Positions 4,003 to 53,334 of a DNA stretch of 64,000 nucleotides are shown here, piece by piece. The DNA comes from Candidatus Uhrbacteria bacterium (GTDB lineage: Bacteria; Patescibacteriota; Patescibacteriia; UBA9934; GWF2-40-263). Numbering within the stretch: position 1 is the stretch's first letter; each line of letters starts with the position of its first letter. The position numbers and the translations under genes are program-made. The DNA is taken from NCBI GenBank assembly GCA_016219925.1, contig JACRJU010000015.1:4672-68671 (forward strand), given 5' to 3'. The notes beneath the pieces were generated by a model. It was not told where the DNA came from, made no database searches, and saw nothing but the letters and a program-made list of their open reading frames with translations.

Positions 4003-5358
4003 TTGTGTATGGCTCAAAAGTATGATTTTGAATTAAGGGGGACCACCTGCCAGAGTTGCGAGGTCGTCATTGAGCGCGATCTCTCTACTCTTGGTGGAGT
4101 TCAACATGTGAGTGCTTCTCACAACACAGGACGTCTAACGATTGAGACGTTTGAGGTTGCTAATGAGGAAAAATTGCTCAGACGCATCAACGAACGATTG
4201 GGTCCTCATGGGTATCAGGCATCGGAAGAATATTCCCGTCAAAAAATTCAAGCCCCATGGAATCTGTCGCGCATTGGCGGCGCTTTGGTTTTGATTCTTG
4301 CGGTGTATGTGATTTTTAAGTGGATGGGATTGTCGACGTTCTCGCCGCAGGCAGAGTCGGCAGGAGGATTGTTCGCGATTTTTGCCATTGGACTGGTCGC
4401 TTCGGTTTCGTCCTGTACCGCTGTTGTTATTGGTTTGCTCGCGGCGGTTTCGTCTGCAAAAGCTAAAGAACAAGCTCACGTCTCATCCAAAGATCGTTTA
4501 CGCCCACATTTTTTATTTAACATCGGCCGCATCGTTGGGTTTGCCGTTTTTGGCGCGCTGATTGGTCTAATCGGTTCGGCCTTTCAACTTTCAACGACGC
4601 TCAACGGTCTTTTCGTCATTGTCATCGCGCTGGTGATGATGAGTCTCGGATTGCATCTGCTTGATGTGGTGCCTTCCCATTTTGCTCGGCTCGCGCCACC
4701 AAAGTGGCTGTCGCATCGCATCCACGCCTTGCAAGATAGTAAGCATCCGGCCGTGCCGTTTGTGTTGGGAGCACTCACGTTTTTTCTTCCATGCGGATTC
4801 ACCCAGTCCATGCAGTTGTATGCACTTTCGCTCGGTAATCCCCTGCAGGCCGCTTTGGTGATGGCCGTATTTGCGCTTGGAACCGCGCCTGCGCTTTTAA
4901 GCGTTGGAATCTTAACTTCTGTTGCGAAAGGCAAAACCCTTCAACGAGTGATGCGCGTTGCCGGTGCCGTTGTGGTGGTGCTTGGTCTGACGAACATGCA
5001 AAACGGTGCGGCTTTGTTTGGAATGAATTTTTCGCCGAAGCATACATCCGCGGCGTCTCCTTCCGCAACGCTCTTGCAAGGAGGGCAGCAATATATCCAA
5101 ATGGAAGTGACATCGCGATCCACCTACGAACCTGATACGCTTGAGGTCATCGAGGGGGTGCCGGTTGAATGGCAGGTGTATGGGTCCAAATCTATGGGAT
5201 GCGCCAGCACGCTTGTTCAAAGGGATTTCGGCGTGCAAACGCGCCTACAGCCCGGCATTAACACCATTCGCTTCACCCCAAACAAAGTTGGAAACTTTTT
5301 ATTCAGCTGTTCGATGGGAATGGTGCGCGGAACGCTGATCGTTAAGCCGCGGGGATAA
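4003..5358 (+). CDS. Heavy-metal-associated (HMA) domain fused to a DsbD/CcdA-like transmembrane core and a C-terminal cupredoxin-like domain
   Basis: The N-terminus has a TCQSC metal-binding CxxC in an HMA-like fold. A polytopic membrane core carries paired Cys motifs (SSCTAV and FLPCGF) like the DsbD_2/CcdA family. The C-terminal ~90 aa form a beta-rich domain with a CSMGM motif. Confidence 0.55.
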   Translation: MCMAQKYDFELRGTTCQSCEVVIERDLSTLGGVQHVSASHNTGRLTIETFEVANEEKLLRRINERLGPHGYQASEEYSRQKIQAPWNLSRIGGALVLILAVYVIFKWMGLSTFSPQAESAGGLFAIFAIGLVASVSSCTAVVIGLLAAVSSAKAKEQAHVSSKDRLRPHFLFNIGRIVGFAVFGALIGLIGSAFQLSTTLNGLFVIVIALVMMSLGLHLLDVVPSHFARLAPPKWLSHRIHALQDSKHPAVPFVLGALTFFLPCGFTQSMQLYALSLGNPLQAALVMAVFALGTAPALLSVGILTSVAKGKTLQRVMRVAGAVVVVLGLTNMQNGAALFGMNFSPKHTSAASPSATLLQGGQQYIQMEVTSRSTYEPDTLEVIEGVPVEWQVYGSKSMGCASTLVQRDFGVQTRLQPGINTIRFTPNKVGNFLFSCSMGMVRGTLIVKPRG

Positions 5359-12248: not shown

Positions 12249-12716
12249 ATGAAACTCGAATCAAGAAAAGCCGCGCCGGATTTTACCCTGCCGGATCAAC
12301 AGGGAAAGCCGCACACTCTAAGCGATAGCCGAGGGCAATGGGTCCTCCTGTATTTTTATCCGAAAGATGATACGCCGGGATGTACGCAGGAGGCCTGCGG
12401 CATTCGGGATCACTTCCTGCGTTTCAGGCGTGCCAAATTGAAGGTGTTAGGTGTTAGTGTGGATTCCGTCAGGAGCCATGAGAAGTTCGTCAAGAAATAT
12501 GATCTGCCGTTTGTTTTGCTTTCGGATACAGAAAAAATGGTGGTTAAGACTTACGGCGTTTGGGCTAAAAAGAAATTTATGGGCAAGGAGTACATGGGAA
12601 TCAATCGCACGTCATTCTTGATAGACCCCGACGGAATCATCGCGCGCGTGTATAAAGATGTGAAGCCTGCGATCCACGCCGAACAGGTCTTGGACGATCT
12701 GAAAGGTTTGTTATAA
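12249..12716 (+). CDS. bcp: Thiol peroxidase / peroxiredoxin Bcp
   Basis: The motif FYPKDDTPGCTQEA matches the Bcp/PrxQ active site. Confidence 0.85.
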   Translation: MKLESRKAAPDFTLPDQQGKPHTLSDSRGQWVLLYFYPKDDTPGCTQEACGIRDHFLRFRRAKLKVLGVSVDSVRSHEKFVKKYDLPFVLLSDTEKMVVKTYGVWAKKKFMGKEYMGINRTSFLIDPDGIIARVYKDVKPAIHAEQVLDDLKGLL

Positions 12717-12761
12717 TGCGAGCGACAATGAATGAAAAGGTAACTACCAACCATTGGGTGA

Positions 12762-12838
12762 AGACGGATTTGTGACCATGTCTCCGGGCCAACGGACTTA
12801 TCGCCGTTGTTCCTTCCGACATGGTCACAAATCCGTCT
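12762..12838 (+). repeat. Conserved-core hairpin element, copy 1: 20-bp perfect outer inverted repeat enclosing a core ending in an inner CAACGG/CCGTTG hairpin
   Basis: The outer arms are GACGGATTTGTGACCATGTC at 12763-12782 and GACATGGTCACAAATCCGTC at 12818-12837. The core is TCCGGGCCAACGGACTTATCGCCGTTGTTCCTTCC. It lies between bcp and rplI and ends about 18 nt before the rplI ATG. Confidence 0.8.
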
Positions 12839-12855
12839 CATGTCGTATCATAATT

Positions 12856-13302
12856 ATGAAAGTCATTCTTCTTGTAGACGTTAAAGCGCTGGGAAAGCAG
12901 GGAAGCATCGTTGAAGTGAGCGACGGGCATGCCCGTAATTTTCTTTTTCCACAGAATCTCGCTGTTGCTGCCACTCCCGAGGCGCTCGAGAAAAAACGAT
13001 TGCGAGAAGAAGCGCTAAAAAAAGAGTCTCACAAAGAGTTGAGTCTTTTTGGCGATCTGGCCGCGAAACTCGACGGGCATGAAGTCCTGATCGAGCAGAA
13101 AATGAATGACAACGGAACGCTCTATGGCGCTGTCGGTGCAACACAGATCGCCTCTGCGCTAAAAAAAGACGGCTTTAAGCAAATTGATTCATCCATGATT
13201 CATCTCGATGAACCCCTTAAGGAACCGGGAGAGTACGCCGCCAAAGTTGTGCTCCCACACGGTTTTGAGGCGGACATTCGAGTTATTATCGAAGGGAAAT
13301 AA
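12856..13302 (+). CDS. rplI: 50S ribosomal protein L9
   Basis: [37 protein letters not shown] is a canonical L9 N-terminus. Start at ATG 12856; the upstream in-frame extension runs through the hairpin repeat and is rejected. Confidence 0.9.
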
Positions 13303-20887: not shown

Positions 20888-21016
20888 GAGTTTTGGCAAG
20901 ATGAATTGGGATAAAAAAATCCAGGCAGAAGGGCCTGGGGAAGAGGTGTGCCGTGTTAGGACGACTTGTCCAGGACGAGCGGGAGGCCGAGCTTGCGCAC
21001 GAGCGCGACGAGCTCA
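20888..21016 (-). repeat. 129-bp direct repeat, copy 1 (3' end of paralog gene plus its terminator)
   Basis: It is identical to 21826-21954. On the minus strand it includes the terminator hairpin CCAGGCCCTTCTGCCTGG plus TTTTTTT, and the last ~20 codons of the gene (…AELVALVRKLGLPLVLDKSS). Confidence 0.85.
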
Positions 21017-21708
21017 GCGAGCTTCGCCTCGTGAAGCGTGTTCGGACGTGTGTTGGGTGGTGGCGGCTGGGTGAACGCGTGGTCCCCGACTTTATACGTG
21101 ACCACGTTATTGCGTTCGTGACTCCAGTACGTATTCCATCTTCTGAGCGAGCACAGGGCTTCGATCGTTGTGGAGTCGATCGTCTGCCCGTCAAAGTGGA
21201 AGGCTACGTTGAACGTCAGGAGTTGATCGTTCTGGTGAAAGATGAACGTTGCGTAACCAGGAATGTCGCTGAGAGTGCCATCTATGGAGTACTGCCAGCC
21301 ATAGTTTCCAGATGGGACGAACCCGAACCACTCTGTGTCGCTATGTGCCAAGGGTTCGGGTACTGTTGGGACATCCCGCAGAAGGCCTTCGTAGAACCAT
21401 CGGAGCACGTTTGGTCCTGCAAGGGTGGAAGGGCAGGCGCGCTTGAACTCTTGCAGGAGAGTATGATCGTTCGGATGCATGATGGAGTCCACACTTCCGA
21501 CGATACCGGTTCCCGTGTCCAGCAGGTCCTCGCACTCCTGCAGAAGTTGCGCGAAGAGGTCGCGCGTCAGTCGAGCCTCTGGCGGAATGATCGTATTGTG
21601 TAGCCTCTGCAAGCGCGCTACCGAACGCGCACCAAGCACGAGAATGAGGTATGGCATCCACATACCATGTTCCGCGAGTCGGTCTCGTAGTGTCGACTGA
21701 TAGTTCAT
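20956..21708 (-). CDS. Hypothetical protein, GC-rich, tandem paralog A
   Basis: It is a 250-aa ORF with no recognised domain. It is homologous to the downstream-adjacent paralog B; for example, ILVLGARSVARLQRLHNTIIP aligns with ILMLGARSATHFQHLHDKVIP. Confidence 0.55.
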   Translation of the reverse strand: MNYQSTLRDRLAEHGMWMPYLILVLGARSVARLQRLHNTIIPPEARLTRDLFAQLLQECEDLLDTGTGIVGSVDSIMHPNDHTLLQEFKRACPSTLAGPNVLRWFYEGLLRDVPTVPEPLAHSDTEWFGFVPSGNYGWQYSIDGTLSDIPGYATFIFHQNDQLLTFNVAFHFDGQTIDSTTIEALCSLRRWNTYWSHERNNVVTYKVGDHAFTQPPPPNTRPNTLHEAKLAELVALVRKLGLPLVLDKSS

Positions 21709-21825
21709 TTCACACCTATTGCCTTGTGTTGCCTTCTGCGATTTCCTTTCTTCTGTTTTTGCGATTTCAAGACCAAGTTGAAATTAGTACGATTGTAATA
21801 AACTGTCAACAACCTCACATTCCAC

Positions 21826-21954
21826 GAGTTTTGGCAAGATGAATTGGGATAAAAAAATCCAGGCAGAAGGGCCTGGGGAAGAGGTGTGCCGTGTTAGGAC
21901 GACTTGTCCAGGACGAGCGGGAGGCCGAGCTTGCGCACGAGCGCGACGAGCTCA
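21826..21954 (-). repeat. 129-bp direct repeat, copy 2
   Basis: Identical to 20888-21016. Confidence 0.85.
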
Positions 21955-22714
21955 TTGAGCTTCGCTTGGTCGATCTCGCACTTGTCGGGCAGGTTGGTTT
22001 CCGGAAGCGTGAAGCTGTCATCGGGGAAGATGTAGAAGATCTCGTACCTCTCTCCGTGAACGCTGTAGGAGCAATCCCAGGGGGAGGAAGTTCGAGAAGC
22101 GCTGAAGTCGTCAGGTGCTCAAGCTGTGAGGCCTTGAGGTGCACATGGACGATCAGCATCCGTTCCGTCTTGGTGGCGATGTAGCCTTTGGGGAGTACGA
22201 CTCCTTCGGGCAGATCCGTCTTGCTGTTGTGAAGACGGAAGGTGAAGGTCACAGGGCAGGAGACCTCGCCCAGTATGCACTTGATCCACGTTCCCAGACC
22301 GTCTTCGTCGGACACGAGGATGTCGCGGTTCCAGAGGTCTCCGTCTGGGATGGGCGTCTGCTTGCTGTGTTCGCTCAGGAGGGTTTGGTAGTACCTCTGA
22401 AGCGTTGCCGGTTTTTGGGAATTTCCTCTGCGAGCGCGGTTGAACTCCCGCAGGAGCATCTCGTCGCTGGGACGCGCGAAGCGGCTCGAGCGTTTGGCGT
22501 CGCCTTCTCCCGTCTCCAGCATCCGTTCGCGTTCCTGCTTGAGCGCGATGAAGAGGTTACGAGGAAGCCGACACTCCAGAGGGATCACCTTGTCGTGTAG
22601 ATGCTGGAAGTGCGTTGCGGAACGCGCTCCCAGCATGAGAATGACGAAGGCCGTCCGCAGCCCGTACCTGTCCAGCAGGTCGAGCGTTGGAAACTCACTG
22701 TTCATGGGTATCAC
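21894..22714 (-). CDS. Hypothetical protein, tandem paralog B; apparent frameshift near a C5/G5 homopolymer at ~22088-22096
   Basis: The N-terminal ~205 aa are in one frame. The conserved C-terminus (…KLNELVALVRKLGLPLVLDKSS, stop at 21894-21896) is in another frame. The longest single ORF (21815-22714) instead reads through into a Ser/Arg-rich out-of-frame tail. Confidence 0.45.
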
Positions 22715-36312: not shown

Positions 36313-36381
36313 CCCACCCCGGGCTTTTTTGTTACACTTTCTTTACCCTCTTTACGTTCTGAATGATAAGTCATTGTCGAA

Positions 36382-36444
36382 GTGATCCTTTACCGGAGGG
36401 AACAACGGCGACGAGTCTGTTGGCCCGGAGGCAGAGGATCACTC
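36382..36444 (-). repeat. Conserved-core hairpin element, copy 4 (reverse orientation)
   Basis: The reverse complement of 36395-36428 is CCGGGCCAACAGACTCGTCGCCGTTGTTCCCTCC, the same core as copies 1-3. It is flanked by the complementary arms GTGATCCT/AGGATCAC. Confidence 0.7.
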
Positions 36445-36460
36445 CGAATATTCAATCATT

Positions 36461-41564: not shown

Positions 41565-41592
41565 TGTGTGAGACGGAATGGCTTCCCCTTGG

Positions 41593-41665
41593 GGTACGAT
41601 GATATGAACACAGGTGAATCACGGGAGGAACCCTATGGATTCCCCTGTGTTCATATCATCGTACC
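41593..41665 (+). repeat. 22-bp perfect inverted repeat (hairpin) just downstream of uvrA
   Basis: GGTACGATGATATGAACACAGG at 41593-41614 pairs with CCTGTGTTCATATCATCGTACC at 41644-41665. The loop is 29 nt. Confidence 0.8.
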
Positions 41666-41784
41666 AACGGATTGTTTGCCGGTCATCTTCACGTTGTCCA
41701 TGTTGATGAAAAGAGATCAGGGCATGTCACAAATCCGTCTCATGAATGGTGATGATGTAAGAGCGGGATCTGTCCGTGTACGCC

Positions 41785-41935
41785 GGCCAGTGGGGGCCCG
41801 GCTGGCCATTTCCCCATCCGTGCTCGCAAGCTGCGCGCGGATGGGAGCCCCATGGCCGCCTGCCCACTAGCCGTGACGGCTTATTCATTCGCAATGCGAC
41901 TTGATTGCCCGAGCTTGTCGAGGGCTGCTCTTGCA
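41785..41935 (+). repeat. GC-rich ~150-bp element A (long imperfect hairpin); inverted copy of 47821-47961
   Basis: The reverse complement of 47821-47961 matches this segment with only a few mismatches. Internally it contains CCAGTGGGG…CCCACT and CCATCCG…CGGATGG stems. Confidence 0.8.
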
Positions 41936-42095
41936 ATGCGGCGTAGTCCATGCCTCCTCGATATAATCAATCATTCCTCACCGAACGAGCGGGGGGCGTC
42001 GGTCAGGTCTGTACTGATCTGTAATTTGTATCTACCGCAAGCGCAAATAAAAACAGGCGAGAGTGTACCCACCTGTTTCTTCACCTGGTTCTTTG

Positions 42096-42678: not shown

Positions 42679-42860
42679 TATAGTCATCACATTATGAAAC
42701 GGGACTCGATAAACGGTAAAAATTTCACAGGACTTGTTTTTCACTGATAAAAATACTCTCGGTATCTACGGATACCGTTCGCATTTTTATCAGCTCCAAA
42801 ACGGCGTTCTGTAAAATTTTTCCTCGTTTCTAAGTCCCGTTTCATAATGTGATGACTATA
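42679..42860 (+). repeat. 182-bp near-perfect palindromic element (28-bp terminal inverted repeats plus nested 11-bp and 7-bp inverted repeats); MITE-like
   Basis: The terminal repeats TATAGTCATCACATTATGAAACGGGACT at 42679-42706 and AGTCCCGTTTCATAATGTGATGACTATA at 42833-42860 are perfect. Nested inside are CTGATAAAAAT/ATTTTTATCAG and CGGTATC-TAC-GGATACCG. The arms between the repeats are also largely complementary. Confidence 0.8.
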
Positions 42861-46995: not shown

Positions 46996-47118
46996 ATAAA
47001 ACGAAAAAGGAGAGCGCCGAGCGCTCTTTTTTGGTTTATGAAGAGTGTCATCCTGAAGGAGTTTCAAGCGACTGAAGGATCTCGAGGTAAATGACCGTAA
47101 GTTACGATTGCGATCACG

Positions 47119-47193
47119 ATTTATCCTGCCTTCGGGCCAACGGACTCATCGCCGTTGTTCCCTCCGGCAGGATAGATCGTGATCGGTTCGTGC
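47119..47193 (+). repeat. Conserved-core hairpin element, copy 2
   Basis: The outer arms CGATCACGATTTATCCTGCC and GGCAGGATAGATCGTGATCG are complementary with one U·G. The core is TTCGGGCCAACGGACTCATCGCCGTTGTTCCCTCCG. Confidence 0.8.
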
Positions 47194-47819: not shown

Positions 47820-47820
47820 A

Positions 47821-47961
47821 GCCCTCGACAAGCTCGGGCAATAAAGTCGCATTGCGAATGGATAAGTAGTCACGGCCAGTGGGGAGGCGGCCATGGGGCC
47901 CCCATCCGCGCGCAGCTTGCGAGCACGGATGGGGAAATGGCCAGCCGGGCCCCCACTGGCC
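47821..47961 (-). repeat. GC-rich ~150-bp element B (inverted copy of 41785-41935)
   Basis: It is the reverse complement of element A. It is followed by TCTGTACTGATCTGAAATCTGTATCT, a direct copy of the motif at 42008-42033. Confidence 0.8.
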
Positions 47962-48066
47962 GTATATCCATCATCTGTCTATCTGTACTGATCTGAAATC
48001 TGTATCTTCTGTAATCTGTACTTCCGAGCTTGTCTCGGTCTCTTTTTTTGTTATACTTACCTGCGT

Positions 48067-49710
48067 ATGCTTCAGCTTTACAATACGCTCACGCACAAAA
48101 AAGAACCGTTTGAACCTCTCAAAAAAGGGCGGGTCGGGATTTATGCCTGCGGTCCAACGGTTTACTGGTTTGCCCACCTTGGAAACATGCGGGCGTTTTT
48201 GTTTGCAGACCTTTTGCGCCGCGTGCTGAGTGCGAACGATCTGGCGGTAAAGTTCGTCATGAATATTACGGATGTCGGCCACCTTACGGACGATGCCGAC
48301 GAAGGGGAAGATAAGATGCTTGTTTCGCAACGTGCAGCGTTTATTTGTCCTAAGTGCAAGAAGTTCCACATTAGTGGATTGATATTGAAAAAAAATCAAA
48401 CAGAGGATAATCGAATTTTTAAAAATACGACTTTAGAAAGCCAATATGTGATATGTCAGAACAAGAAATGTAATGAAAAGATTTTTTTCAATTCCGAAAA
48501 CCTAGCTTTACATCCGATGCTTAGTGAATTGGCTCGTTTTTATGAAAAACAGTTTAAGATGGATATTAAACAGTTCAACATTATACCCGCCACAGAATAT
48601 CCGCGTGCCACAGATAATATTAAGGTACAGATTCAAATGATTAAAGATATAGAAAAGAATGGTTTTACATATAAGACGACAGATGGGATCTATTTTAATA
48701 CTTCAAAGCTTCATGATTATGGAATTCTTTCAGGTCAAAAAAGTAATGAAAAAGAAGGTGGCATCCGCGTGGCAATGAAAGAAAAAAAAAATGCAACAGA
48801 TTTTGCATTATGGAAGTTTAGTTATCCAAATGGTATTAGCAGAGAAGATTACATTTCAAACATGAAGAGTGGGTTAACCTTAGTAAATACCAACTGGAAA
48901 GGAAAGAAATTAATTTTGCGAGATCCTGAAATGGAATGGGATGCGCCGTGGGGGACGGGGTTTCCCGGTTGGCATATCGAATGTTCGGCCATGTCGAAAA
49001 AATATCTCGGGTTCCCGTTTGATATTCACACCGGCGGCGTGGATCACATCGCCGTTCACCATGAAAACGAACTTGCGCAATCCATCGGATGTTGCGGCAT
49101 TTATGAGGCGCGGTTTTGGATGCACAGTGAATTTTTGACGGTTGATGGGGGCAAGATGAGCAAGTCGCTTGGCAATTTGTTCACGCTTCAGGATCTTATC
49201 AACAGAGGCTATGATCCACTCGCGTTTCGTTATCTCACCCTTAGTGCACACTATCGCACCAAGCTCAACTTCACCTGGAAGGCACTTACCGCATCGCAAA
49301 ATGCGCTTCATCGCCTGTACGATACCGTGCGCGATTGGGACACACCGAAGATTGGGTGCTCGGAGTATGAACAGCGATTTGACGCGGCGTTTGAAGATGA
49401 TTTGAATGCTCCGCAAGCGCTCGCGGTGATGTGGGAGATGATTGAAGACGGGGCATTGCCGACTTCGGGTAAAGCTCAGTCTATGTTGAAGTTTGATCGC
49501 GTGCTCGGTCTTGGACTTGAAGCGTATATCGCAACCCCCCTTTTTATCCCAGAAGAGGTACGTGCGCTGATCGCCGAGCGCGAAATCGCGCGTGACGCAA
49601 AAGATTGGTCAGCGTCTGATCGACTGCGCGAACAGATCGAACAGCTCGGGTTCACTATTGAAGATACCCCTAAGGAAACAAAAGTTCGTCAAAAAAGATT
49701 ATCGCTATGA
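48067..49710 (+). CDS. cysS: Cysteinyl-tRNA synthetase with an inserted AT-rich zinc-ribbon segment
   Basis: CGPTVYWFAHLGN is the HIGH-type motif. Also present are GFPGWHIECSAM, the Zn site, and KMSKSLGN. An extra ~60 aa inserted after DKMLVSQRAAF contains CPKCKK…CQNKKCNEK. Confidence 0.9.
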   Translation: MLQLYNTLTHKKEPFEPLKKGRVGIYACGPTVYWFAHLGNMRAFLFADLLRRVLSANDLAVKFVMNITDVGHLTDDADEGEDKMLVSQRAAFICPKCKKFHISGLILKKNQTEDNRIFKNTTLESQYVICQNKKCNEKIFFNSENLALHPMLSELARFYEKQFKMDIKQFNIIPATEYPRATDNIKVQIQMIKDIEKNGFTYKTTDGIYFNTSKLHDYGILSGQKSNEKEGGIRVAMKEKKNATDFALWKFSYPNGISREDYISNMKSGLTLVNTNWKGKKLILRDPEMEWDAPWGTGFPGWHIECSAMSKKYLGFPFDIHTGGVDHIAVHHENELAQSIGCCGIYEARFWMHSEFLTVDGGKMSKSLGNLFTLQDLINRGYDPLAFRYLTLSAHYRTKLNFTWKALTASQNALHRLYDTVRDWDTPKIGCSEYEQRFDAAFEDDLNAPQALAVMWEMIEDGALPTSGKAQSMLKFDRVLGLGLEAYIATPLFIPEEVRALIAEREIARDAKDWSASDRLREQIEQLGFTIEDTPKETKVRQKRLSL

Positions 49711-51892: not shown

Positions 51893-53241
51893 CGAAGCAA
51901 AATCGTGGCCAAACCGAGGAACGTCAGGAATCCCAGGACGTCTGTCGCGGTGGTGATGAACACCGTGGCTGAAGAGGCTGGATCTTTTCCGAGACGTTTC
52001 ATAATGAGCGGGACGAGTGTTCCAAAAAATCCGGCGACAAGAAGATTTGTCATCATGGCGATGCTTAAGACGAGGGCTAAACGCAGATCATGATTAAACA
52101 AGATGACAATGGCCGCTACAATCAGACCGTTGATCACCCCGTTGATGAGACCGGCTAAAAGTTCACGAGAAATCGTCGGCCACGCCGTTTTCAAATCGAT
52201 TTGATTGAGCGTGATGCCGCGCACCAAAACGGCGAGCGTTTGCGTTCCGGCGTTGCCGCCCATGCCTGCAACGATTGGCATATAGACGGCCAGCAAAACA
52301 TATTTTGAAATGGTTTCATCAAACAAGCTCACCGTGAACGAAGCGAGAAACGCCGTGGCAAGGTTGATGATGAGCCATTTGTAACGCGAGGATACCTTCG
52401 CCCATGTGGAATCTGCGACCGTTTCCTCCTGACGCACGCCGGCCAAATGGTAAAGCGAAGCGGATTCGTGTTTAGAGATGCGACTGAGCAAGTCATCGGA
52501 ATAAATAACCCCGATCACGTTTCCGGTTTTACCTCGTACGACCACGCGCGCGTGCGGATGCTGGCGGAAGACTTCCAGGACTTCTGCATGGTTGGCGTCA
52601 TGGGCGATGGAGGGGACGTGTCGGATGAGTCGTTCGATCGGCTCGCTTGGACGAGCGATGGCCAAGGCGTGGCCGGGAATGTAGCCGATGATTTTGTTCG
52701 CGCGCATCGCGATGACGGTTGGGATGCGGCCCGTGCGCGATTCATGCTCTTTGATTTTGCGCGCTACGGCTTGAACCGTTTCACCCGTTTCGATTTGGAT
52801 ATAGTCCGCACTCATGAGTCCCGCGGCCGTTTGCGGATCAAACGACGACAAGAGCTCGACGCTATTTTTCAGCTCGCGCGTGAGGCGCGAGATCAAACGG
52901 TGTCGTCGGAGTTTTGGGAATTGTCTTAAGAGGTCCGTTGTTTGATCGGGATCCAACTCATTGAGCGCTTCAATGATGACTTCATCTTTGATTTTTCTTG
53001 CGATGTCATTGAGGGTTTGTTTACCGAGGTTGCACAAGAGCACCGCTCGAATTTCCGGCGCAAGCGAAAGGAAGCGTTTGACACGCTCCTTTTTGTTGAA
53101 TTGCATTTGGTGCACGAGTTCACGCACGTCGCGCGCGGAAAATTTTTTTGTTGCCATACCTCCGTTGGCTTCTATTGTACACCGAGCTTTCGCTTCAAAC
53201 AAAAAAGACCTCCCATTGGATGAAGACCGATTTGTGACCAT
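51889..53241 (-). CDS. mgtE: Magnesium transporter MgtE
   Basis: It has the N-terminal MgtE_N domain, tandem CBS domains, and a C-terminal five-TM MgtE domain (GNAGTQ, PLIMKRLGKDPA). Confidence 0.85.
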   Translation of the reverse strand: MVTNRSSSNGRSFLFEAKARCTIEANGGMATKKFSARDVRELVHQMQFNKKERVKRFLSLAPEIRAVLLCNLGKQTLNDIARKIKDEVIIEALNELDPDQTTDLLRQFPKLRRHRLISRLTRELKNSVELLSSFDPQTAAGLMSADYIQIETGETVQAVARKIKEHESRTGRIPTVIAMRANKIIGYIPGHALAIARPSEPIERLIRHVPSIAHDANHAEVLEVFRQHPHARVVVRGKTGNVIGVIYSDDLLSRISKHESASLYHLAGVRQEETVADSTWAKVSSRYKWLIINLATAFLASFTVSLFDETISKYVLLAVYMPIVAGMGGNAGTQTLAVLVRGITLNQIDLKTAWPTISRELLAGLINGVINGLIVAAIVILFNHDLRLALVLSIAMMTNLLVAGFFGTLVPLIMKRLGKDPASSATVFITTATDVLGFLTFLGLATILLR

Positions 53242-53300
53242 ATCTCCAGGCCAACGGACTCATCGTCGTTGTTCCCTCCGATAGGGTCACAAATCTGTCT
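53224..53300 (+). repeat. Conserved-core hairpin element, copy 3 (overlaps the mgtE start codon)
   Basis: The arms AGACCGATTTGTGACCATATC and GATAGGGTCACAAATCTGTCT have two mismatches. The core is TCCAGGCCAACGGACTCATCGTCGTTGTTCCCTCCG. The mgtE ATG (complement of 53239-53241) lies inside the 5' arm. Confidence 0.75.
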
Positions 53301-53334
53301 CCTGTGCCTTGAACGGTCTTGTGATACGAATGAT

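Follow-up and report, generated by a model that had tools for sequence, protein, structure and literature searches.

In the 64,000-nucleotide stretch of Candidatus Uhrbacteria DNA analysed here (contig JACRJU010000015.1; hereafter, the window), we have characterized a family of hairpin-forming elements, each about 75-90 nt in size and composed of a conserved centre and two outer arms that differ widely in sequence between copies yet pair with each other. The element is a previously undescribed high-copy palindromic repeat of Uhrbacteria-like bacteria of the Candidate Phyla Radiation (CPR, or Patescibacteria); indeed, we found no description of such an element in the literature on palindromic repeats or miniature transposable elements with inverted repeats (MITEs) of CPR. 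With a probability of roughly 0.6, we consider the hairpins to be a lineage-specific, non-autonomous interspersed palindromic repeat of the selfish-DNA type in Uhrbacteria-like Patescibacteria, working like the Rickettsia palindromic elements (RPEs) and the hairpins formed by paired repetitive extragenic palindromes (REPs), namely REPINs.

Within the window, the core pattern GGCCAACRGACTYRTCGYCGTTGTTCC was matched four times (12787-12813, 47135-47161, and 53249-53275 on the plus strand and 36399-36425 on the minus strand) and did not occur in any of 100 dinucleotide-preserving shuffles of the same DNA. A covariance-model scan of the whole 64 kb, with filters off, found no full copy beyond these four, and a long single hairpin is predicted for every one of them (-33 to -54 kcal/mol; z = -3.8 to -7.5). 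The copies and their parts are as follows:

12762-12838, plus strand (i.e., the strand on which the motif was first read; the hairpin of the opposite strand is more stable): copy 1, full element, with a covariance-model score of 91 bits.
12776-12824, plus strand: conserved centre of copy 1, composed of CCATGTC / UCC x UCC internal loop / GGG-CCY / CAACGG-N8-CCGTTG / GACATGG.
12746-12761, plus strand: 5' flank of copy 1, ACCAACCATTGGGTGA, common to copy 3 (53208-53223).
47111-47185, plus strand: copy 2, full element, with 20-bp arms (CGATCACGATTTATCCTGCC) unrelated to the others; -51.5 kcal/mol.
53225-53299, plus strand: copy 3, full element of the copy 1 subfamily, with two arm mismatches.
36377-36447, minus strand: copy 4, full element running in reverse, with arms (GGAGTGATCCT) that are short.
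41726-41744, plus strand: solo arm, a truncated copy (GTCACAAATCCGTCTCATG) without the core or the partner arm.

Copy 1, the 21-nt arms of which are 100% complementary (-53.9 kcal/mol; z = -7.5), lies between the stop codon of a bcp-like peroxiredoxin gene (12716) and the ATG of rplI (12856), and its central block (12776-12824) is kept throughout the family. The rplI locus of the window is also carried by SRR12113407. Copy 2 is located between an ftsL-like gene and a membrane-protein gene. Copy 3 is flanked by two minus-strand genes, mgtE (at its start region) and a tRNA gene, and copy 4 by two plus-strand genes, one of the SDR type and one NMN adenylyltransferase-like; relative to the gene strand, the orientation of the four copies is split 2:2. 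Together with their flank, copies 1 and 3 are 87% identical over 98 nt (12746-12843 and 53208-53305), and the flank ACCAACCATTGGGTGA is a repeat extension specific to this subfamily. Part of the same flank reappears in reverse complement beside the solo arm, which is the arm GTCACAAATCCGTC of copies 1 and 3 standing alone (41726-41739) downstream from uvrA, in a spacer rich in repeats. Both copies have arms that are, furthermore, diverged forms of GAGCGGTTTGYRCC, the most frequent arm in the family.

An earlier reading made from the letters of the window (hereafter, the sequence-only reading) had counted four copies plus an orphan arm and placed all of them between genes, and both statements hold, the latter with realistic start codons. 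The ATG of rplI at 12856 is agreed by an independent gene call, and copy 1 does end just upstream of it, by 17 nt and not by the 18 nt that had been given. The overlap of copy 3 with the mgtE start codon was, in contrast, a matter of the longest open reading frame (ORF) only; the GGAGG-ATG near 53157 is the most likely start of mgtE, and copy 3 then falls between genes. As regards coordinates, those of copy 1 were right, those of copy 2 (47119-47193) were shifted by 8, and those of copies 3 and 4 are corrected in the list above. The inner stem CAACGG/CCGTTG, which had been assigned to each core, is found in copies 1 and 2, but is altered by an A·C mismatch in copy 4 (CAACAG) and by a G·U pair in copy 3 (TCGTTG); the core itself, put at about 33 nt, grew to a block of about 47 nt (CCATGTC...GACATGG) when about 100 relatives were aligned.

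These relatives were obtained by scanning one genome per species as well as metagenome and viral-contig collections. The genomes gave 23 loci, nearly all of them divided among metagenome-assembled genomes (MAGs) of Candidatus Uhrbacteria (JACPHT01, JACQXU01), one unclassified MAG from groundwater (JAGVFR01), and one MAG of Parcubacteria; 92 additional stretches came from the metagenomes, and the viral contigs had no match. The sources are almost exclusively Uhrbacteria/Parcubacteria MAGs and metagenomes of the groundwater type. A covariance model built from 24 copies (R1) was used to rescan the same loci and added divergent copies; after de-duplication, the family comprises about 124 unique core matches, about 120 of which are genuine copies, at a density of up to 3-4 per 8-14-kb locus with ordinary housekeeping genes in between. 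The conserved block in the alignment of these relatives, CCATGTCTCCGGGCCAnCGGACT..TCGCCGyTGTTCCCTCCGACATGG, is laid out as CCATGTC-TCC-GGG-C-CAnCGG-(7-8 nt loop)-CCGyTG-TT-CCC-TCC-GACATGG, and its centre occurs in three variants: namely, A (CAACGG/CCGTTG), B (CAGCGG/CCGCTG, a compensated pair), and C (CATCGG/CCGCTG, with a 7-nt loop). The 12-20-bp arms beyond the block vary greatly in sequence from copy to copy, with pairing kept. Signs of decay are also present, i.e., truncated copies, deletion remnants, and half copies like the solo arm (L008:6805-6892 and L019). Two contigs labelled as Gammaproteobacteria (CAYJVQ01) also bear the hairpin: L015 has two tandem copies at the contig end (1-140), and L019 has a full copy and a half copy adjoining a GroES-like gene (4900-5080). 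Both contigs look CPR-like, and the taxonomic label of the MAG or its binning may be wrong.

The pairing of the arms was evaluated on 103 unique copies. In this alignment, 90.1% of the cells formed standard pairs, as compared with 72.6% in column shuffles and 36-53% in partner-sliding controls, and cells changed on both sides numbered 529 vs 155 in the shuffles (score, 0.45 vs 0.14); double-sided changes were seen at 21 of the 28 pairs, and all 19 outer pairs co-vary. Stem covariation is thus strong and highly significant in these copies, and the proposal that the arms change in sequence and still pair is borne out. The sequence-only reading had gone further and taken such covariation as the mark of a structured RNA and as excluding mobile DNA. 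This step does not follow: covariation cannot tell RNA from mobile DNA, because REPINs, which are DNA, show compensatory changes too (PMC3116915).

Near-mismatches in the stem are, furthermore, unevenly distributed between the two strands. On the strand on which the motif was first read, A·C combinations outnumber G·U ones by 157 to 36 (p = 3e-19), and the excess is retained in the register-safe inner 12 pairs (123 vs 19), after collapsing the arms to 59 clusters (88 vs 30), and in the alignment A3 (158 vs 49). The A·C excess on this strand therefore represents wobble pairs on the complementary strand, and the complementary-strand hairpin is the more stable one in 97 of the 103 copies with RNA parameters and in 100 of them with DNA parameters. 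On that strand, the UCC x UCC loop reads GGA x GGA, and variant C has G·A in place of U·C; the strand that tolerates wobble is hence the complement of the one originally proposed. In the copies inside tgt (see below), the sign of the asymmetry is unchanged whichever strand is the mRNA, and the asymmetry is therefore intrinsic to the element and does not come from transcription of the host gene. Such a one-strand wobble bias points to a strand-specific single-stranded form, be it single-stranded DNA (ssDNA) or RNA.

If the element were a structured-RNA family, the complementary-strand hairpin would be its product, whether as a small RNA (sRNA), as an RNA that binds a protein, or as a retro-mobile element's RNA intermediate. 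The strong covariation with its excess of double-sided changes, the gathering of wobble pairs on one strand as in RNA helices, the purine-rich GGA x GGA loops with G·A in place of U·C, and the compensation in situ at orthologous loci, where the core is conserved beyond the coding flanks, would all agree with this idea, as would the C(UUCG)G loop of a nested insert described below, but that loop is on the other strand. We nonetheless consider a structured RNA unlikely, because the orientation of the copies is random with respect to transcription units, even at the tgt site and at the copy 2 site. In co-directional gene pairs, indeed, crude ORF calls put the motif on the strand of the genes in 31 cases and on the opposite strand in 27. 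No promoter, terminator, or flank is conserved, copies are found within ORFs and are present or absent between close relatives, and the asymmetry is just as strong with DNA energy parameters; an RNA family would, moreover, mean dozens or hundreds of copies per genome of about 1 Mb. No Rfam match speaks for it, either: at the gathering score, only tRNAs were detected in the window and 11 related loci, and an E-value scan of 12700-12900 gave only generic miRNA-hairpin matches of 12-28 bits against cut-offs of 98-140. The earlier statement that the hairpin could not be matched to a known riboswitch or ribozyme is consistent with these scans; the suggestion of an sRNA or cis-regulatory element, however, is disfavoured by the orientation, the lack of a conserved promoter or flank, the rarity of T-runs (~12%), the presence/absence pattern, and the copies in ORFs, and the REP-like palindrome that had been offered as an alternative fits best.

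The placement of the copies bears on yet another idea, namely, that they terminate transcription or protect mRNA 3' ends in the manner of REPs and share their loop sequence by chance. By the same crude ORF calls, convergent gene pairs are favoured over divergent ones (12 vs 4 copies), some copies have a following T-run or a preceding A-run, and the hairpins are very stable, all of which would suit such a role. A T-run, however, follows only 13 of about 118 copies (~12%) with no link to gene ends, for which an intrinsic terminator was rejected; the rplI ATG follows copy 1 after 17 nt, copies are in part located within ORFs, and termination needs no conserved 47-nt centre. This explanation is hence very improbable. 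When the flanks were examined by profile, we found neither a conserved flank or promoter nor a short motif abutting the stem.

Evidence for a mobile or removable unit, as expected of an interspersed palindromic repeat, comes from orthologous sites at which the element is present in one relative and absent from the other, with flanks 85-93% identical and with the arms gone together with the centre:

L064, present; L092, absent.
L101, present; L097, absent.
L093, present; L009, absent.
L103, present (twice); L088, absent.
L083, present; L012, absent.

The idea that the arms are palindromes already existing at the target was rejected, since the empty sites in the L064/L092 and L101/L097 comparisons have no arms; a two-step history is possible. 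At the site in L020 that is syntenic with copy 2, the element is flipped and has different arms. Changes of the arms re-paired in place were also seen at orthologous loci, from GGTAGC/GCTACC to GACAGC/GCTGTC (L002 vs L057) and from GGTAG/CTACC to GATAG/CTATC (L069 vs L049). The core is 86-100% identical at orthologous loci with flanks of 60-95% identity; among tgt orthologues with flanks of 60-80% identity, the arms are wholly replaced yet paired, and the centre is 86-93% identical.

Conservation of this kind might suggest a DNA element that was domesticated by the host and is kept by selection at each locus, with CAACGG-N8-CCGTTG serving as the site of a dimeric or nucleoid-associated protein, or with the hairpin as an ssDNA signal in replication or repair. 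The inner inverted repeat with its fixed spacer and the persistence at the same site across species would be in line with such a role, as would a core more constant than its flanks. Binding to double-stranded DNA, however, accounts for neither the paired variable arms nor the strand asymmetry, the element is missing from many orthologous sites, its commonest variant (CATCGG/CCGCTG) disrupts the inner repeat, and its orientation is unlinked to GC skew. We therefore regard domestication as quite improbable.

Several observations also weigh against a selfish-type palindromic repeat and should be set out together. A tblastn search with IS608 TnpA and the E. coli REP-associated tyrosine transposase (RAYT) as approximate query sequences gave no match in 0.9 Mb of loci, a set short of whole genomes. 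Neither a target-site duplication at the five occupied/empty comparisons nor a target motif or conserved flanking motif in the flank profile was found, and the orientation relative to GC skew is 52:44, which is not significant, whereas an IS200-like process on the lagging strand would predict a link. Copies that are identical to each other are missing from the window, where copies 1 and 3 are 87% identical; with no recent identical copies, therefore, the presence/absence pattern could result from deletion and not from insertion. Furthermore, at orthologous loci with flanks of only 60-75% identity, a core of 86-93% identity and arms re-paired in place indicate constraint on resident copies or their continual conversion, which is not expected of a purely decaying selfish element. 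Because no enzyme, target duplication, or target motif has been found and resident copies appear constrained, we do not put the probability of a selfish-type repeat above about 0.6. The ORFs between closely spaced inverted copies are housekeeping genes, with no insertion sequence (IS) or autonomous partner among them.

Copies that are read through in frame within genes are consistent with a selfish-type repeat. In tgt (Pfam TGT, E = 2.8e-141), five orthologous genes read through an 87-nt copy, and the 29-codon insert takes the place of a loop of about 10 residues in insertion-free relatives. This loop is located between RWAxRC/SK and LFGIVQGG. Among 120 close TGT homologs, the loop reads MSPGHRTVAAVPSD (..SPGHRTVAAVPSD..) in 12 and the reverse-complement MSEGTAATVRWPGDM (..SEGTAATVRWPGD..) in 7; the remaining homologs include other frames, nested or partly deleted forms, and unrelated palindromic-repeat peptides. 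AlphaFold modelling of the L008 TGT (mean pLDDT, 87.9) gave a single long segment of low confidence, residues 178-192, TMSPGHRTVAAVPSD, which is modelled as a coil between a helix (151-177) and a strand (197-202); the tgt insert falls in a disordered loop of this model. The TGT homologs P0015, P0042, P0049, P0086, and P0087, from other CPR lineages, have a different palindromic-repeat peptide (..RHCEEG..IASV..PRNDE..) in the same loop; several families of hairpin repeats have therefore recurrently landed, or been tolerated, at this site. Besides tgt, an HD-domain gene in L064 has a 99-nt in-frame copy, where the orthologue in L092 reads WWKQKQSRKAVHEDY without interruption, and a copy is likewise read through in the gene for a Wzy_C protein in L033.

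Two further candidates were rejected. An archaeal-type mini-intron with a bulge-helix-bulge does not fit, since the two 3-nt loops lie opposite one another, without the 4-bp offset of that motif, and since the ORFs continue in frame across the copies. A small conserved ORF is likewise disfavoured: the copies are open in six frames in 59% of cases, but in any frame and in either orientation, the arms in the window have no Shine-Dalgarno sequence, and the six-frame openness is weak and rests on one conserved sequence.

The element itself can also be a host of other repeats. A GC-rich 36-nt hairpin, CCTACGCCGGCCATAGCCGGCTTCGGCCGGCGACGG, is found 16 times between two CCGG, always within the element, at a constant position and orientation; its sequence is 100% identical in copies with different arms and with all three centre variants. 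It is present in L036 and missing from the orthologous copies in L012 and L099, and its loci are as follows:

L029, L031, L032, L036, L044, L062, L063: nested 36-nt hairpin with the C(UUCG)G loop.
L075, L093, L094, L102, L103, L105, L114: the same nested hairpin.

The nested hairpin resembles a parasite of the repeat, or else a short tract of gene conversion. Additional apical hairpins are seen in other copies (L031:6074, L013:161, and the protein P0003), and several metagenome loci contain the element as a single module within larger intergenic mosaics of hairpin repeats. Further repeated intergenic modules flank the element in L012, L021, L036, L039, L044, L068, L075, L099, and L103, including gatcgttcggatcctctgttcttgaccgccgcc..., ttacaatcttataaacctttctcttcagcc, and GC hairpins such as ggcggggtcccttgaccccgc; some of them build a larger palindrome of about 250 nt around the element, and no Rfam match was found for these flanking modules.

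A more far-reaching idea, which we entertain only tentatively, is a CPR-specific, persistent hairpin replicator in which the asymmetric centre would be the handle for an enzyme and the element would pass through a one-strand form, either ssDNA or, via a reverse transcriptase, RNA. If so, resident copies would be actively maintained, with arms re-paired, cores homogenised, and the element flipping in place, even in an essential gene like tgt, and the 36-nt hairpin would parasitise the element at a CCGG site. The element would then be a long-term genome symbiont like REPINs, with an inverted architecture and hosts of minimal genome size.

For the selfish-type interspersed repeat that we prefer, a plausible mechanism can be outlined. 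The active form would be the single-stranded hairpin of the complementary strand, most likely as ssDNA and possibly as RNA; by analogy with REPIN/RAYT, IS200/IS605, and attC, we infer that ssDNA would be the more economical of the two. A trans-acting protein might bind the conserved purine-rich centre, i.e., the GGA x GGA loop, the G·A or A-U pair, and the CGA..AGU apical loop, and this centre-recognising protein would copy, move, or maintain the element. The arms would need only to pair and could hence drift via G·T(U) intermediates and compensating changes.

In the window, other repeats were observed besides the hairpin family. A GC-rich 143-nt repeat is present in two inverted copies, 41784-41926 and 47820-47962, that are 95% identical, each folding as a long hairpin of about -68 kcal/mol; one is 40 nt from the solo arm, and the other is in the spacer before cysS, where the relative L115 has a copy of the hairpin family. 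This repeat was not found in any of the retrieved loci. Just downstream of uvrA, a separate hairpin (41593-41665) has 28-nt arms, 96% complementary, and a 17-nt loop, and the spacer 41565-41950 is a mosaic of palindromes composed of this hairpin, the solo arm, and the 143-nt repeat. A large imperfect AT-rich palindrome (42679-42733 / 42806-42860; 55-nt arms, 82% complementary, 72 nt apart) adjoins a cupredoxin-like gene. A 145-nt direct repeat (20888-21032 and 21826-21970; 97% identity) is the common 3' end plus downstream sequence of tandem paralogues on the minus strand (20956-21708 and 21815-22714), which suggests gene conversion. The cysteinyl-tRNA synthetase ORF (48067-49710) is long, at 547 aa, and includes what looks like a zinc-finger module inserted into it, a segment bearing two CxxC motifs (CPKCKK...CQNKKC).

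Genomes of CPR/Patescibacteria are tiny and streamlined and are thought to be poor in repeats, and the present hairpin repeat occurs every few kilobases. Such repeats will confuse covariation-based screens for non-coding RNA, create spurious ORFs and N-terminal extensions (e.g., a 182-aa "rplI" ORF and a long "mgtE" ORF), and may break metagenome assemblies. The reversed architecture, the one-strand wobble signature, and the nested 36-nt hairpin are, at the same time, handles for finding the enzyme responsible and for deciding whether ssDNA or RNA is active.

Among known systems, attC sites and the ends of IS200/IS605 have a strand-specific, folded ssDNA hairpin as the substrate, for which structure outweighs the sequence of the arms. 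The present element would be alike in having such a hairpin as its active form, but it has no R''/R' core sites and is not in cassette arrays, and neither an adjacent integrase or TnpA nor a conserved cleavage tetranucleotide beside the hairpin was seen. An integron attC was indeed rejected on the grounds that the core GCCAACG...CCGTTGTTCC misfits the R' consensus (RYYYAAC / GTTRRRY) and that the copies are dispersed among housekeeping genes. MITEs such as the enterobacterial repetitive intergenic consensus (ERIC) and Correia/NEMIS are, like the present element, small non-coding interspersed inverted repeats that are sometimes intragenic or co-transcribed, and ERIC has a conserved central inverted repeat. 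Intragenic copies of ERIC have been mentioned (PMC10969869). The terminal inverted repeats of a MITE are, however, constant between copies, match those of a parent IS, and come with target-site duplications, none of which was found here; a MITE was rejected, since the arms differ between copies, the target is not duplicated, and no IS lies between paired copies.

REPs and REPINs are, like the present element, high-copy palindromes forming long hairpins with compensatory changes and long-term vertical persistence. REPIN hairpins commonly show such changes; they are believed to work as ssDNA that a single-copy HUH/Y1 enzyme recognises in a strand-specific manner (PMC3116915). The architecture is nonetheless reversed: the conserved parts of a REPIN are its ends (REP 16-mers), with a variable spacer between them, and that of the present element is its centre, with variable ends. 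Most of its copies are, furthermore, without a conserved 5' tetranucleotide of the GTAG type, and the family includes intragenic copies.

The likeness to RPEs is seen in what the element does. RPEs insert in frame in ORFs (PMC10969869), and both are short interspersed palindromes that form long hairpins, occur in spacers as well as in frame in unrelated housekeeping ORFs with a peptide compatible with the protein fold, have no known transposase, and reside in hosts with reduced genomes. They differ in host (CPR/Patescibacteria here and Rickettsiales for RPEs), in size (about 75-90 nt vs about 100-150 nt), in the conserved centre and variable arms of the present element, and in that one protein loop carries the present element in both orientations and in several frames. 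Given that the likeness is one of behaviour rather than of comparison with the RPE consensus, we describe the element as working like RPEs and do not claim its membership among them. The hairpin family of Uhrbacteria-like bacteria thus adds a system beside RPEs in Rickettsia and REPIN-RAYT in proteobacteria, and it also remodels the surface loops of conserved enzymes.

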